Origin: an uncultured Eubacteriales bacterium
GTDB taxonomy: Bacteria > Bacillota > Clostridia > Oscillospirales > Acutalibacteraceae
Length of the DNA stretch: 64,000 nucleotides
Reading direction: 5' to 3'
NCBI GenBank assembly: GCA_964481575.1
Contig: CAYZTR010000001.1
Coordinates: forward strand, 46,724 to 110,723
The notes under the pieces are model-generated. The model was not told the DNA's origin. It saw only the letters and a program-made list of their open reading frames with translations, and ran no database searches. Every line of letters begins with the position of its first letter. Position 1 is the stretch's first letter. Position numbers and translations under genes: made by a program. This document shows positions 31,949 through 35,883 of the stretch, piece after piece.

Positions 31949-33748
31949 TTAATCGTCGTCCTTTTCCTGTTCTGAGAGGGGCAGCTGGTCAAAAGGAATC
32001 AAACAATTGTGTGTTTTTGCCAAGTCATTGCGCTGCTGCGCATAGCAGTACCCTTCTGAACGCATATACGCATTCCATCTGCGATGCTCTAATCTGCGTA
32101 TGGCCCATTTTTCCGCTTCGGTTCGCTGAGCAGCGGGCTTGTCCGCGCCGGGTATGCCGCATTTTTGCTTCATCTTATGATGGATGGCAGAAGCCATGGA
32201 GGATTTATAGTTGTATTCGTATTTCCAGAAATCCGCTTCCTGCCCCCATTTCAAATGACGCTGCAAAGCAGCCTGTTCTGCTTCTGAAGCCAAAATGACC
32301 TCTTCGGAATAGGCGGTTTTAATATCTCCGATGAACTCGATTTCATAGGGCTGCCCCTTAAAGTTGGTGATTCCCTGCAGTGCTTTCTTCTTGTCGGTAT
32401 GATATATCACAGTCTGTATTTGCGGCTTCACACCTGCGCGCTCAAACCGGGTGCGCAGTTTGATGGCTGCTTGGATGTTCTTTTCATCCTCTCCCAGCGC
32501 CACAAACACGTAGGTTGGTGTCGGCAAAGCGAAAACTGCATCGTCAAAAGCTTTTGTCCGCGCATCCATGCCGGAATGGATGAAAATTTGATAATTGGCT
32601 TCTCCGTCCGGATGAAAATTGCCGTTGTGCGTATCGTCCATCAATTCCGGGCAAAGGGAAGAAAAGGCCGATTCGGCTGTTTCGGAAGCATCAAAGGCGT
32701 TAATTTCCACCTGGTATCCGTCCATCTGACAAAACCATACCAGCGCTTTCAGCATTTCGGTTCCATGGCGCCCCAGCCCCACGATTACGGCGGAAATATG
32801 TTTGCGCCCATCTTCTGCCGGTATCGCGTGTTCAAAGATCTGGTGTCCCCCATCATAAAGGGTACGGAAAATCAGGGATTGCACCTCGTTGATTCGCCGC
32901 ACCTTCATTTGGATAGGGACGATACTGCCGGGATGCTCCGCCTCCTGGCGGACAGCATTGGCTAACAGGAGATCGGCTTCCACCTGGGTGGAAAAGACAT
33001 ATAAATGGGTGTGCGCCCGGTGCTGGTACTTTGCCAGCAGCGCGAAAGCCTGATTGACGTTTTCGGAGGGGTCTTCACCGATGGTAAAGAAGCGAATGGG
33101 GCAATTTTTGCTGTGAAAGGAAAAATTTACGGCAGCCATCTCTTTTTGAAAGCATATGGCGCCCAATTGCTGTGCATGTTTTGCCAAGTCACTGTGGGCT
33201 TCCTCACTTCTGGGCATATTTGCAAAAATGACAGCCCGGCCGGTGGCGTCCTTATCCATAAGACTTTCCGCCAAGGCCAGCGATTTTTCATTCAGGTCGG
33301 AAAAAATGAACACATCTTTCCGATAACTTGCAAGATATCTTCTGCGTGCAGATACATTTTTGAAAAAGGACAACACAAAGCCGAAGGTTAAAAGCGGCGC
33401 TGCTACAAACAAAATGGAAAACAAAAAAGAATAGGCATAAAAAATGCCGCCGGACAAACCTGCGATATTTTCCGTGATAAATCCGAAATCCACATTCACG
33501 AGAACCAGCTGTATCATGGTATAGACGGAGATGAACAACATCTCCAGGAAACCACAGTCGTTATATTTATAAGCGTTTATGCAGATCGGAATAAATAACA
33601 GCACCGAGGCCAATGCCATGCCGACAAACAATATTTTAGATGGATCGCAAAAGCGCCCCTTCCTTTTGGCTTTGCCCTTAGCCGCGGCAAACACAACGGC
33701 CAAAAACAGGCAAAGAACCGCACCTGTAAAATAAACTACCCAATGCAT
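31949..33748 (-). CDS. Multi-pass membrane protein with two Rossmann-like modules and a C-terminal RyR (ryanodine-receptor repeat) domain
   Basis: Four to five N-terminal hydrophobic helices. There is a GxGxxG-like motif (AVIVGLGRHGTEML). The C-terminus, RRLEHRRWNAYMRSEGYCYAQQRNDLAKTHNCLIPFDQLPLSEQEKDDD, fits the RyR repeat pattern (E/H.RW...+..GW.Y......K.HP.LVP+.ELP..EK..D). ATG 33748 follows GGGGAG-7 nt. Confidence 0.75.
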   Translation of the reverse strand: MHWVVYFTGAVLCLFLAVVFAAAKGKAKRKGRFCDPSKILFVGMALASVLLFIPICINAYKYNDCGFLEMLFISVYTMIQLVLVNVDFGFITENIAGLSGGIFYAYSFLFSILFVAAPLLTFGFVLSFFKNVSARRRYLASYRKDVFIFSDLNEKSLALAESLMDKDATGRAVIFANMPRSEEAHSDLAKHAQQLGAICFQKEMAAVNFSFHSKNCPIRFFTIGEDPSENVNQAFALLAKYQHRAHTHLYVFSTQVEADLLLANAVRQEAEHPGSIVPIQMKVRRINEVQSLIFRTLYDGGHQIFEHAIPAEDGRKHISAVIVGLGRHGTEMLKALVWFCQMDGYQVEINAFDASETAESAFSSLCPELMDDTHNGNFHPDGEANYQIFIHSGMDARTKAFDDAVFALPTPTYVFVALGEDEKNIQAAIKLRTRFERAGVKPQIQTVIYHTDKKKALQGITNFKGQPYEIEFIGDIKTAYSEEVILASEAEQAALQRHLKWGQEADFWKYEYNYKSSMASAIHHKMKQKCGIPGADKPAAQRTEAEKWAIRRLEHRRWNAYMRSEGYCYAQQRNDLAKTHNCLIPFDQLPLSEQEKDDD

Positions 33749-33770
33749 GGCTGGTCTCCCCGCGTCGGCG

Positions 33771-34769
33771 TTACAGAATGGATGGGTTGATGAACTCTTG
33801 CACCATCGGCGTTTTCACAAACAATGCAATGTCCAGGCCCAAGCTGATGGCAATCCATATTTTTACACTGATCGGAACGGATGCAGCGCCCAGCAAAATG
33901 TGGATGTGCAGGCGTTGGTAGGCCCGCATACTTTCGTAGGCATCTCCGCAGGGGACATCCGGCAGGAAAACGGGAATATTTAATTCCCTGGCCTGGCTGC
34001 ATAACTGCTCCAGCTGCGGGCTTGCGGTGTTCAGGGTGCCTGAATGGTAGGGAATCAGCAGGATCGCACGGTATTTTGAAAGGTCATAGTCGTATTGCTC
34101 GGTAGGGGAAGCGTGGATGGTCAGCAGGCCGGGGTTGTCGCAAAAATGAACCCGGCCGCAGGGCGTGCCTGTAGCTGATGGTATATAATCGTCACATGTT
34201 TTGACCATGTTGTCCCGGTAGCGTGCGTAGGGAGAACCACCCAAGCTATATATTTTGTCGGAGAATTCTGGATGGCGCAGCATACGCGCGGCACAGTGAA
34301 TATCCACGCAGCCGCTCGCATCGTTGGCATAGCAGGCGTACACACCGCGGCCCGCCTTGCCGCGGATAAATGCAACGGCCGCCTCAAAATTGATTTCGCC
34401 GTTGGAAAAATCGCTTCCCAAGGGGAAGTTGCTGGATACAAACATCACCGGTATGCATTCACAGCCGACGCAAAACGCAGCCGCAGCAGCTGAATATTGC
34501 AGGGTGTCGGTACCGTGGGCAACGATGATTCCGTCATAATCGCCCTTTACGCCGTCACAGATGCAATCCATCAGCAGACACAGTTCCCCAGCTGTCAGGT
34601 TTTCGCTAAGCACGGTGTAGGGGGTTGCAGTGACAAATTCCGCCGAATGGCCCCATTTGCTTTGATATCCGTTAATGAGACGGTAATCGGTGGCAGGATC
34701 GGTGGAAATCCATCCGTTGCTTTCCGTGCTGCCGATGGTACCGCCGGTAAAAATCACAAGAATCTTCAT
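33771..34769 (-). CDS. L-asparaginase-fold protein (divergent)
   Basis: MKILVIFTGGTIGS (the TGGTI threonine motif) and IIVAHGTDTL (the HGTDT motif). The ATG lies 4 nt after the stop of the upstream TIR gene. Confidence 0.75.
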   Translation of the reverse strand: MKILVIFTGGTIGSTESNGWISTDPATDYRLINGYQSKWGHSAEFVTATPYTVLSENLTAGELCLLMDCICDGVKGDYDGIIVAHGTDTLQYSAAAAAFCVGCECIPVMFVSSNFPLGSDFSNGEINFEAAVAFIRGKAGRGVYACYANDASGCVDIHCAARMLRHPEFSDKIYSLGGSPYARYRDNMVKTCDDYIPSATGTPCGRVHFCDNPGLLTIHASPTEQYDYDLSKYRAILLIPYHSGTLNTASPQLEQLCSQARELNIPVFLPDVPCGDAYESMRAYQRLHIHILLGAASVPISVKIWIAISLGLDIALFVKTPMVQEFINPSIL

Positions 34770-34773
34770 TTTC

Positions 34774-35799
34774 TCAGCCTTTCATCTTTACCTCAAAGGA
34801 GCAGCAGGTTTTAAATCTGTTTTGCAGCGGACATTCTACGCAGGTAAGTTCCGCGTCTACCGAACCCAGCAGGGTTTCAATGACGCCGGTGCAATATCCC
34901 CGTATAAAACCGCAGATGTGCCGCTTTTTGGATTTGTCAACAATGAAAGCCTCATTAATGCTCAGCTTTGCGGAAATGGTGCCGGACTCCTCATCGAATT
35001 CCCCGAAGGTGATATCAAATTTGCCCCAGCCCACGGCAGAGTCAAACTGGCACCATTTTTTCAGCTTATTTTCCATTTCCTCAATGGAAGCGCCTGTGTC
35101 CCACTTGCTGCTGAGGCGCTCCCCAAAGTTCCTGCCGCTGGTGTAGCCGCTGGTGTAGAAGATGTCCTCCGCCACCTGGGCATCAGACATTTCGGCCACC
35201 TTTTCATAGATGCCGCCCAAAAGGTTAATCAGTGTGTCCGTACGGAAGCTGACATTGCGCTGATTATCCTCCGGGTTAATCATGATGCCTCTTTCCCTGT
35301 TATAGGTGAATATGGTGTTGCTGTTCTTATTTTGATCTGCCGCTGTATTGGCTGGTTCCGGCAAAACCGGCGCGACAGGCTTTACTTCCTTGGGCCGCAG
35401 TTCGCTTAAACGCTCGTTGACAATATCCAGTACCTTTGGAAAATGCCCTTCCAGATTATCAGAGTAGGCAATGACCCGCTGGCGTCTGCCAATATAATAG
35501 CGCAGGTCATCATTCAACTCAAAATCATCAATAATGAGCGGAAGTATGGTTTTCTTTTTGTTGGACATAATGTCAATCTCGTTGAGCACCTGCTCAGAGG
35601 CATTGGAATTGGTAGAGGCCACCAGTATCGCCATGGTGCAGTCGTTGATGGCACCGGTAAGCGCCGATGCGTAAGGCCGCCCTGGCTCTATATCCCGCGG
35701 CGCAATGTAACAGGAAATATGGTTCTGTTCCAGAAATTCTACAAGTGCAAAGGCAATTGCGTCATCCATCGTGCTTTTGCTGATGAATACATCCTTCAT
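34774..35799 (-). CDS. TIR domain protein fused to an XylR-N/V4R-like ligand-binding module
   Basis: The N-terminus, MKDVFISKS..HISCYIAPRDIEPGRPYASALTGAINDCTMAILVASTNSNASEQVLNEID..ILPLII, follows the bacterial TIR pattern (DVFIS, RD..PG, S.N...S.W/V...E). The C-terminus has DIFYTSGYTSGRNFGERL .. HICGFIRGYCTGVIETLLG .. CVECPLQNRFKTCCSFEV, which is V4R-like. ATG 35799 follows GGAGG-8 nt, so the upstream part of track ORF ..35910 was discarded. Confidence 0.78.
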   Translation of the reverse strand: MKDVFISKSTMDDAIAFALVEFLEQNHISCYIAPRDIEPGRPYASALTGAINDCTMAILVASTNSNASEQVLNEIDIMSNKKKTILPLIIDDFELNDDLRYYIGRRQRVIAYSDNLEGHFPKVLDIVNERLSELRPKEVKPVAPVLPEPANTAADQNKNSNTIFTYNRERGIMINPEDNQRNVSFRTDTLINLLGGIYEKVAEMSDAQVAEDIFYTSGYTSGRNFGERLSSKWDTGASIEEMENKLKKWCQFDSAVGWGKFDITFGEFDEESGTISAKLSINEAFIVDKSKKRHICGFIRGYCTGVIETLLGSVDAELTCVECPLQNRFKTCCSFEVKMKG

Positions 35800-35854
35800 G
35801 TGAAACGCCTCCATAGAATCCGCCCGTTTCCTTGCTTGGCAGATTATTATTATT

Positions 35855-35883
35855 ATAATAGCACATTTTGTCGAAAAAGGCAA
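35855..35883 (-). promoter_or_regulatory. Putative promoter of the TIR operon
   Basis: Minus strand reads TTGCCT-17 nt-(TGc)TATTAT, i.e. an extended -10. Confidence 0.5.

Follow-up and report, generated by a model that had tools for sequence, protein, structure and literature searches.

What would bring a TIR domain, an asparaginase fold and a membrane-anchored RyR domain together in a single bacterial operon? The question is raised by a locus in a 64,000-nucleotide (nt) stretch of DNA from an uncultured gut member of the Eubacteriales (Clostridia; contig CAYZTR010000001.1), referred to here as the window, in which three head-to-tail open reading frames (ORFs) on the minus strand lie within positions 31949-35883 (window coordinates) in the order g1, g2, g3. 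The first of these, g1 (34774..35799, minus strand; 341 amino acids (aa) from the ATG at 35799), encodes a TIR-V4R fusion protein, g2 (33771..34769, minus strand; 332 aa) encodes its asparaginase-fold partner and g3 (31949..33748, minus strand; 599 aa) encodes a membrane protein with Rossmann and RyR domains. Our reading, to which we assign a probability of about one half, is that the operon encodes a composite, unnamed, Thoeris-like TIR conflict system of two modules, g1-g2 and g3, most likely serving in anti-phage defence and abortive infection.

Putative ligand-site residues in the RyR domain of g3

The C-terminal part of g3 (residues 487-599; 31952..32290, minus strand) consists of tandem RyR repeats of the R12 type, as judged from phmmer and Pfam searches and from residue conservation. 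According to two 2026 preprints, phage proteins with RyR/R12 domains, RyDEP and RyR-Tad, bind or cleave 2'/3'-cyclic ADP-ribose (cADPR); the ligand residues are H75, W78, H100 and D117 in RyDEP and H129/W132, K147/H154 and K170/D171 in RyR-Tad (PMC13232231; bioRxiv 10.64898/2026.06.04.730250). In the second RyR repeat of g3, residues H555, W558, R573, H580, K596 and D597 are each conserved in 33-36 of the 36 sequences, and their spacing (3, 22, 17) is identical to that of H75/W78/H100/D117 in RyDEP and of H129/W132/K147/H154/K170/D171 in RyR-Tad. Residues 555-597 align without gaps (HMMER) to the 139-aa RyR-domain structure 35tm_A, and the g3 counterparts of the RyDEP catalytic dyad, H555 and D597, are invariant. 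The first repeat keeps H498, W501 and H523. Judged by these alignments, the RyR domain of g3 retains all six positions that bind 2'/3'-cADPR in RyDEP and RyR-Tad. A link between RyR domains and cADPR had been no more than a hunch in the first-pass annotation of this DNA; it is now experimentally backed for phage RyR-domain proteins, whose ligand residues g3 keeps.

The assignment of the C-terminus, also proposed at that stage, holds as well, although at a score below the Pfam cut-off: the last 115 residues of g3 match the solved RyR-domain protein of Bacteroides thetaiotaomicron (6uag, 3nrt) with an E-value of 1.5e-7 in phmmer, the Pfam RyR profile matches the C-terminal segment with an E-value of 3e-5, and one member of the family, P0237, has a precomputed PF02026 match.

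TIR genes next to g3 homologues

The g3 family is large (at least 1,262 clusters) and highly conserved (mean column identity 67%), and its genomic context was sampled in 79 metagenome loci, 40 of which show the gene directly downstream (position +1). A TIR gene occupies that position in 16 of the 40 loci, whereas among 142 background genes, taken from position four outwards, there are 3 (2%; odds ratio 31, p 1e-9), figures that rest on simple ORF gene calls and on a TIR profile built iteratively from those same loci. After dereplication at 90% identity, a TIR gene is found at +1 in 12 of 35 lineages. The partners are TIR-HD (TIR-x-HD), TIR-LRR_4, TIR-LRR_5 and TIR-WD40 proteins, and all 25 TIR domains encoded next to g3 homologues keep a Glu aligned with the catalytic-type Glu of g1 (E74, see below).

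Several other genes recur around g3 homologues. A second, divergent g3-like paralogue lies one or two genes downstream of the g3 homologue in some loci (L113:13336-, L134:9851- and L153:9181-11286); the neighbour in L153 is a 701-aa protein with about three transmembrane (TM) helices and a weak match to Castor_Poll_mid. Small ORFs of 82-105 aa directly precede g3 homologues in L007 (6735-6983), L008 (6644-6937), L149 (7631-) and L153 (7625-). Transglutaminase-like and metallopeptidase-like proteins and AAA+/FtsH-like proteases are also found repeatedly, as are proteins of ~1,900 aa that cluster with the transglutaminase-like and metallopeptidase-like ones.

Membrane and Rossmann-type domains of g3

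In the predicted model of g3 (predicted local distance difference test, pLDDT, 87.7), four or five helices at the N-terminus are followed by a pair of alpha/beta domains and then by a helical C-terminus, in agreement with the four to five TM helices and two Rossmann-like modules initially claimed for it. The N-terminal membrane region (residues 1-140; 33329..33748, minus strand) combines these helices and their hydrophobic segments with the conserved motif APxLTFGFVLSFFKN. The first alpha/beta domain (residues 143-305; 32834..33322, minus strand) is Rossmann-like in the model and is devoid of the glycine motif; it has no Pfam match, and its fold resembles RCK gating rings only weakly. The second (residues 312-480; 32309..32815, minus strand) carries the invariant GxGxxG motif (G324, G326, G329) and D353, with a TrkA_N score of only 15.2 bits versus a gathering threshold (GA) of 23.8. 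In fold, this domain weakly matches NAD-binding domains and the CASTOR gating ring. The whole chain of g3 points, also weakly, to the architectures of K+ channels and of the CASTOR RCK gating ring (E-values from 3e-3 to 4.5e-4).

A K+ channel is not supported as an identity for g3: there is no Ion_trans-type Pfam match, no selectivity-filter motif was seen and the fold matches are weak. Neither did Pfam searches with g3 yield a DUF2270, DUF6650, SLATT, Macro or SLOG match. A search of the BFVD viral folds was uninformative, with a best E-value of 7e-3 and a phage RyR protein only at rank 40. A phage origin was rejected on the basis of the IMG/VR matches, none for g1 and one for g3.

The TIR domain and V4R-fold sensor of g1

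Members of the g1 family (>215 clusters, ~330-340 aa) come from metagenome-assembled genomes (MAGs) of Clostridia. The N-terminal domain of g1 (residues 1-135; 35395..35799, minus strand) matches the TIR_2 profile with 53.1 bits and an E-value of 5.7e-14 (PF13676, GA 28) and the TIR profile with 34.6 bits (PF01582, GA 21.3). In the AlphaFold model of g1 (pLDDT 83), the fold matches found by Foldseek for this domain include the TIR domains of MAL, SARM1 and SPARTA. The Glu residue of the VLNEID motif, E74, is invariant in all 34 family members compared, and it is equated with the catalytic Glu through the motif and the fold match rather than through residue-level structural superposition. The TIR assignment made in the first pass is thus borne out by profile and fold, its conserved Glu by the family alignment, and the proposed link of the operon to TIR activity and NAD stands.

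The remainder of the protein (residues 160-341; 34777..35322, minus strand) is a sensor domain of the V4R/Bet3 fold, delineated by Foldseek matches and invariant columns. Its best matches in the Protein Data Bank are the sensory domains of PoxR (5frw), DmpR (6iy8) and MopR (5kbg), with E-values from 8e-8 to 2e-7, a probability of 1.0 and target TM-scores of 0.6-0.67; TRAPP Bet3 is also matched. In Pfam, the isolated domain has no match to V4R or XylR_N (PF02830/PF06505) at E<=10, and relatives of g1 reach 14-20 bits against these profiles versus a GA of 31. The V4R/XylR-N-like module that had been read from the sequence is accordingly recovered at the level of the fold (E ~1e-7) and falls below threshold in Pfam. 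Invariant features of this part include the motif WCxFDSxVGWG and five Cys residues (C296, C303, C320, C323 and C333); the Cys cluster may be comparable to the Zn site of the XylR/DmpR-type sensors.

The V4R-asparaginase pair as the conserved unit

When the g1 family was sought in a single genome of each species, 80 loci were obtained, hosted by animal-gut Clostridia MAGs (Acutalibacteraceae, Christensenellaceae, Oscillospiraceae and Lachnospiraceae) and by one Pontiella. The V4R gene is immediately followed by a g2-type gene in 71 of these 80 loci (median gap 11 nt, the two frequently overlapping), and in two further loci the g2-type gene is adjacent in another arrangement (73/80 in total). 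A g3-type gene follows the pair in only three of the ~81 loci, namely in the window, L015 and L027. A YjeF_N gene is found where g3 would be in L179, the locus of the closest relative of g1 (79% identity). The first-pass annotation had treated the three genes as one unit, a view that these counts do not sustain. A conserved third gene of any other kind was likewise sought and rejected, as each kind of gene downstream of the pair was seen only once (fucosidase, esterase, ABC transporter, GH3 and others). The immediate neighbours of the pair fall into 129 Pfam families, ~10% of these neighbours are defence-like in PADLOC, and the insertion sites vary between genomes. Because the third genes are unrelated and the neighbours diverse, the conserved unit is the pair, inserted at many genomic sites.

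In both L015 and L027, the gene behind the pair encodes a g3 paralogue of the same architecture that is 26% identical to g3. In L059, a protein with a significant Pfam RyR match, one transmembrane helix and a GTGHLG motif is encoded two genes downstream of the pair. RyR-type proteins are therefore found behind the pair in at least four loci (the window, L015, L027 and L059) representing three lineages.

Some of these loci have further features of note. The YjeF_N gene of L179 (2848-3483) belongs to the NAD(P)HX epimerase family and represents another NAD-derivative-related neighbour of the pair. In L059, the gene between the pair and the RyR protein (9617-11608) encodes a 664-aa protein with no Pfam match at E<=0.001; by eye its end is RyR-like, 'LEHQRWLQEHYDMGWIYGE...RQHKDMIPE'. 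In L003-L005 (1-7300 and 10100-17000), the TIR-V4R/asparaginase pair sits inside a dense TIR/CAP12/STAND island that encodes a TIR_2-Sel1 protein, another TIR protein and a CAP12-PCTIR_TIR protein. The island also encodes a 92-aa RyR protein, TPR proteins, an LRR_5 protein, a type IV secretion system (T4SS) coupling protein and a 1406-aa Pkinase protein with a weak match to Card1_endonuc (PF09002); L003 has in addition an ATPase/WD40 protein, and L004 and L005 have DUF4062.

Exchange of the N-terminal domain

The TIR domain is not a fixed part of the V4R protein. In ten loci it is replaced by an all-alpha, HEPN-like domain, with the V4R domain and the asparaginase-fold neighbour kept. All 8 sequences compared carry the LRNxLxH motif of this domain (the HEPN Rx4H motif, R134-N-x-L-x-H139) unchanged, and the Pfam scores of the domain are sub-threshold, 20.6 bits for HEPN_Apea versus a GA of 24.4 and 14-15 bits for HEPN_RiboL-PSP. 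Four of the HEPN-like-V4R loci (L078:7977-9515, L080:7851-9428, L085:7638-9308 and L087:1351-2886) share an upstream, same-strand gene for a protein of 512-557 aa with C-terminal hydrophobic segments and no Pfam match, which may be a third component of the HEPN-like branch.

An exhaustive search with the V4R part yielded 373 representative clusters. Among the 97 distant ones, the N-terminal partners included a ParA/MinD-like ATPase (52 clusters), TIR (4), Metallophos (3) and DUF4062 (1). The asparaginase gene adjoins the V4R gene in four of the five distant contexts inspected, and the genes found next to these pairs encode an integrase, a transposase, a T4SS coupling protein, AAA_15 or PNP_UDP_1; the Metallophos-V4R gene and its asparaginase adjoin an integrase. 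The ParA/MinD-like-V4R fusions (572-602 aa; L172:5001-8238 and L173-L175:5001-8827) are paired with asparaginases of 474-478 aa that keep the catalytic Lys. In L176 (2872-7341), the asparaginase gene is followed by a fusion of an unknown domain with V4R and then by PNP_UDP_1, beside a T4SS coupling protein. A V4R protein encoded in L178 (560-8943) has no asparaginase; it is flanked by a NACHT-FGE-sulfatase protein and a pyridoxal phosphate-dependent (PLP) decarboxylase, with SIR2_2 nearby.

The outputs joined to the V4R/asparaginase module would be at least five in kind (TIR, a HEPN-like domain, a calcineurin-like phosphoesterase, a ParA-like ATPase and unknown domains), and the V4R and asparaginase-fold genes thus constitute an old two-gene module with exchangeable outputs. 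Because the pairing of g2 with V4R persists after the replacement of TIR by HEPN-like, Metallophos or ParA-like domains, g2 is to be placed on the sensing or regulating side. For the same reason, the initial proposal that g2 is a receptor or effector acting downstream of TIR is unlikely.

As to other genes at the ParA-type loci, L173-L175 continue with two extra genes (182 aa and 605 aa) and have a helix-turn-helix gene and a transposase upstream; in L173 and L174, AAA_15/SMC_N also follows.

The asparaginase-fold partner g2

The asparaginase fold of g2 is supported by a PF00710 score of 83.8 bits (E-value 1.4e-23) and by a family profile that spans both domains (residues 1-325) in alignments with the archaeal-type L-asparaginases 9ufr, 4q0m and 5ot0 (E-values from 2e-39 to 3e-35). 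Invariant in the family are the TGGTI motif with the nucleophile T11, S55-E56 and the HGTDT motif (T87-D88). The position of the catalytic Lys (K154 in PfA, K162 in EcAII) is occupied by R165 in g2 and by R, S, A, C, Q and other residues across the family, and that of the loop Tyr (Y21) by W20 in g2 and by Trp or Phe in the family. There is also a 5-6-residue insert with a near-invariant His, and g2 scores 65 bits against the NCBIfam asparaginase equivalogs, whose cut-offs are 260-310. Because neither the catalytic Lys nor the Tyr of the loop is conserved, g2 is, on sequence grounds, a protein with an asparaginase fold and not a canonical asparaginase. Of the earlier description of g2 as an L-asparaginase-fold protein, the fold therefore stands (PF00710, 1.4e-23; full-length alignment, 2e-39), and the canonical Lys and Tyr are not kept.

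Proposed mechanism and alternatives

From the domains, conserved residues and gene associations observed here, we infer the following biochemical steps and, with them, a role in defence. In the first module, g1 and g2, the V4R domain and the asparaginase-fold protein would form the constant sensing or regulating unit, and the exchangeable output would here be a TIR NADase. The partner g2 would bind or convert an amino-acid-like amide compound, since its Thr nucleophile and the residues expected to hold the alpha-amino-acid moiety are retained, despite the loss of the canonical Lys and Tyr. This step would set the ligand state of the V4R domain, and the V4R domain in turn would switch the assembly of g1 with itself, much as DmpR responds to phenol. 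Since the active site of TIR domains forms only on self-association, this assembly would turn on the cleavage of NAD+. In the second module, the RyR and Rossmann domains in the cytoplasmic part of g3 would read the TIR product, ADP-ribose or a cADPR isomer, and possibly the NAD(H) level, and g3 would convert the signal into a membrane event, for example an ion leak or depolarization, in the manner of the effectors that act at the membrane in Thoeris types II, VI and VII. A stronger, joint claim, namely that g3-type proteins are host membrane RyR(R12) receptors of TIR-made cyclic ADP-ribose signals and also that the V4R and asparaginase-fold pair is an unrecognized amide-cue sensor module with at least five outputs, is one that we put forward only tentatively.

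Several observations weigh against the two-module conflict system. A g3 gene is missing from ~95% of the pair loci, including that of the closest relative, and g3 must be dispensable for the pair because of this absence. Housekeeping genes make up the majority of the pair's neighbours, and the commonest distant output is a ParA/MinD-like ATPase, which is no classical toxin. About two thirds of the g3 lineages are without an adjacent TIR gene. On the biochemical side, g2 may not be an enzyme, given its non-canonical active site, and the operon's own TIR may just deplete NAD+ and make no signal. Against Pfam RyR (PF02026), full-length g3 scores 20.6 bits and its C-terminal segment 24.6, both short of the gathering score of 27.4, and the channel-like fold matches of g3 are weak (best E-value 4.5e-4, TM-score ~0.35).

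The scarcity of g3 behind the pair would be accounted for if the real system were only the g1-g2 cassette and g3 a passenger, a nucleotide sensor of the membrane with a role of its own that is co-transcribed by chance. That just three of ~81 pairs are followed by a g3-type gene, that the 79%-identical relative has YjeF_N in its place, that the other genes downstream of the pair are unrelated housekeeping genes and that g3 homologues are met in many different surroundings, not all of which include a TIR gene, all speak for this explanation; what makes it rather doubtful is the arrangement of the locus itself, in which g3 follows g2 after 22 nt with its own ribosome-binding site, no terminator separates the two and one strong terminator follows g3, together with the 30-fold enrichment of g3-type proteins beside TIR genes, g1 being the only TIR gene nearby here, and the presence of three lineages of RyR proteins behind the pair in four loci. 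If g3 does belong with the TIR protein, it might still act in the opposite direction, as a host-side glycosidase similar to RyDEP or as a sponge that removes the basal TIR product, protecting the cell from self-intoxication or resetting the system. Phage RyR-domain proteins do cleave or sequester cADPR isomers, and the counterparts of the RyDEP catalytic dyad, H555 and D597, are invariant in g3. We nevertheless regard a signal-clearing role as distinctly unlikely, since a soluble enzyme would suffice for it, whereas the conserved membrane region and two Rossmann-type domains suggest signalling to the membrane; moreover, many loci link only g3 and a sensor-type TIR protein (LRR or WD40), which would leave no other effector.

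A physiological role for the whole assembly is unlikely as well. Here the V4R/asparaginase pair would be a metabolite sensor, for example in amino-acid or amide metabolism, and TIR would hydrolyse NAD(P) under its control, for metabolic or developmental ends. The mostly housekeeping neighbours of the pair, one subset of which is syntenic between mnmA and spo0A, would fit such a role, as would the canonical Lys of the asparaginases in the ParA-like versions, the lack of viral copies of g1 in IMG/VR and the lack of a match to any named defence system. The exchange of TIR, HEPN-like, Metallophos and PNP_UDP-associated versions is, however, typical of conflict systems. The company that some members keep (integrase, transposase, T4SS coupling protein, TIR/STAND islands), the patchy distribution, the differing insertion sites and the lower G+C content also speak against a physiological role, and we prefer the two-module, Thoeris-like conflict system for the operon as a whole.

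Relationship to known systems

No named system was found for this operon by PADLOC v2 or NCBIfam release 20, as had been suspected when the locus was first described. In PADLOC v2, g1 gave only sub-threshold ThsB-like matches (<=19.6 bits, E-value 1e-4) and g2 and g3 gave none; in NCBIfam release 20, nothing in the operon scored above cut-off, Thoeris_type3_ThcB4 reaching 14 bits versus 220. The closest likeness is to Thoeris (types I-XI), which couples the TIR protein ThsB to a signal-activated effector. Here too, a TIR gene with the catalytic Glu lies beside a gene for a TM protein with a putative nucleotide-signal-binding domain, the g3 family forms two-gene arrangements with sensor-type TIR proteins, and RyR-type domains bind the Thoeris signals 2'/3'-cADPR. 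The membrane effectors available for comparison are TM-Macro in type II, DUF6650-TM in type VI, SLATT in type VII and an 'ion channel' in type X. The operon differs from Thoeris in that no Thoeris model matches it and in that its TIR domain forms one protein with V4R and is linked to a gene of the asparaginase fold. RyR/R12 is also not among the effectors named in the accessible part of the report by Yirmiya et al. (2025), whose available text and supplements contain neither 'RyR', 'asparaginase' nor 'Rossmann', nor any of six TIR peptide words from the loci studied here; 'ryanodine' appears there once, in a discussion of animal cADPR signalling. As far as can be told from that portion of the source, the operon might still coincide with one among the 29 putative types described there, for example the type X 'ion channel' (Yirmiya et al., 2025).

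With the TIR-SAVED/Cap12 proteins of the cyclic-oligonucleotide-based anti-phage signalling systems (CBASS) and with PycTIR of Pycsar, g1 shares the fusion of TIR to a small-molecule sensor and the swapping of TIR for other killing domains. Because interchangeability with other killing domains is a hallmark of effectors, this likeness points to an effector role for the N-terminal position of g1. Unlike in those systems, the sensor of g1 has the V4R/Bet3 fold and is not a SAVED or cyclic nucleoside monophosphate-binding domain, its asparaginase-fold partner is constant and there is no cyclase: neither a CD-NTase nor a pyrimidine cyclase is encoded by the three genes or by those that recur next to them.

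The individual proteins have more distant counterparts. RyDEP and RyR-Tad (PF02026) share with g3 the domain and six ligand-contacting residues at identical spacing; g3 differs in being cellular, 599 aa long and membrane-anchored, with two RyR repeats per chain fused to Rossmann-type domains, and in its predicted role, that of a host receptor or effector and not of counter-defence. The fold of residues 160-341 of g1 is that of the V4R domains of XylR, DmpR, PoxR and MopR and of TRAPP Bet3, but in g1 it is below the Pfam thresholds in sequence and is fused to TIR rather than to an AAA+ sigma-54 activator. The type I (archaeal/cytosolic) L-asparaginases and GatD can be aligned with g2 over the full length of both domains (E-value 2e-39), and the Thr of TGGTI and the HGTDT motif are invariant in the g2 family; this family stands apart in its variable Lys, its Trp or Phe in place of Tyr, its His-bearing insert and its equivalog scores below cut-off.

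Literature searches on asparaginase with TIR or HEPN, and on V4R with TIR, in defence returned nothing relevant. A 2013 survey of HEPN domains mentions neither V4R nor asparaginase, and a 2022 survey of NAD-ADPr and viruses has no V4R, asparaginase or RyR. By the defence libraries and literature searched, the asparaginase-fold partner and the host RyR-domain membrane protein are two unrecognized components beside TIR.

Implications

TIR signalling systems are being catalogued rapidly. If the proposed g3 axis, from TIR through cADPR to a membrane protein with an RyR domain, is correct, it would define another class of Thoeris-like systems and mirror, in prokaryotes, the animal link between cADPR and ryanodine receptors. 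That link has long been debated. Should g3 bind TIR products, it would offer a simple bacterial model of an R12/RyR domain that couples cADPR-type ligands to a membrane protein, a question that became testable only with the 2026 structures of phage RyDEP and RyR-Tad. The V4R/asparaginase cassette, which is abundant in gut and rumen Clostridia, would add the logic of a small-molecule or amide-cue sensor to bacterial immunity.

Organization and composition of the locus

The gaps between stop and start codons are 4 nt for g1/g2 and 22 nt for g2/g3, and a Shine-Dalgarno-like site precedes each of the three genes on inspection of the sequence. The start of g1 at ATG 35799 agrees with the N-termini of 33 homologues. 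An intrinsic terminator hairpin (31888..31937) is common to g3 and to a convergent P-type ATPase gene; it has a 17-bp perfect stem and a 9-nt loop followed by a U-run, with a folding free energy of -31.6 kcal/mol and z = -6.5. Scanning and folding revealed no comparable terminator between g1, g2 and g3. Upstream of g1, a promoter-like site, TTGCCT followed after 17 nt by a TG-extended TATTAT (35855..35883, minus strand), was recovered by a scan with 9 of 12 matches and the TG present. Nine promoter-like sites were found in the region versus 5.4+/-1.9 expected, which is not above chance, and because such sites are not over-represented the element is weak evidence for a promoter. The G+C content of the operon (0.499) is below that of the window (0.539) and in the lowest 3% of windows of the same size, a modest difference.

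These results reproduce the layout given in the first-pass annotation: the three packed minus-strand ORFs with their coordinates and gaps, the Shine-Dalgarno site of each start, the promoter-like element (35883..35855 in the direction of transcription), with the reservation made above, the terminator and the A+T-richness, slight as it is. The close spacing and the one strong terminator after g3 also agree with its view of the genes as a single operon.

The lowest-G+C patch of the neighbourhood (0.38) lies at ~28500-29500 of the window, upstream of the P-type ATPase gene, and overlaps a 182-aa minus-strand ORF at 29112..29660. The 64,000 nt of the window contain no tRNA genes; structured RNAs found elsewhere in it are a bacterial small signal recognition particle RNA (2525-2623, minus strand, 67.5 bits) and a T-box leader (58172-58396, plus strand, 97 bits).

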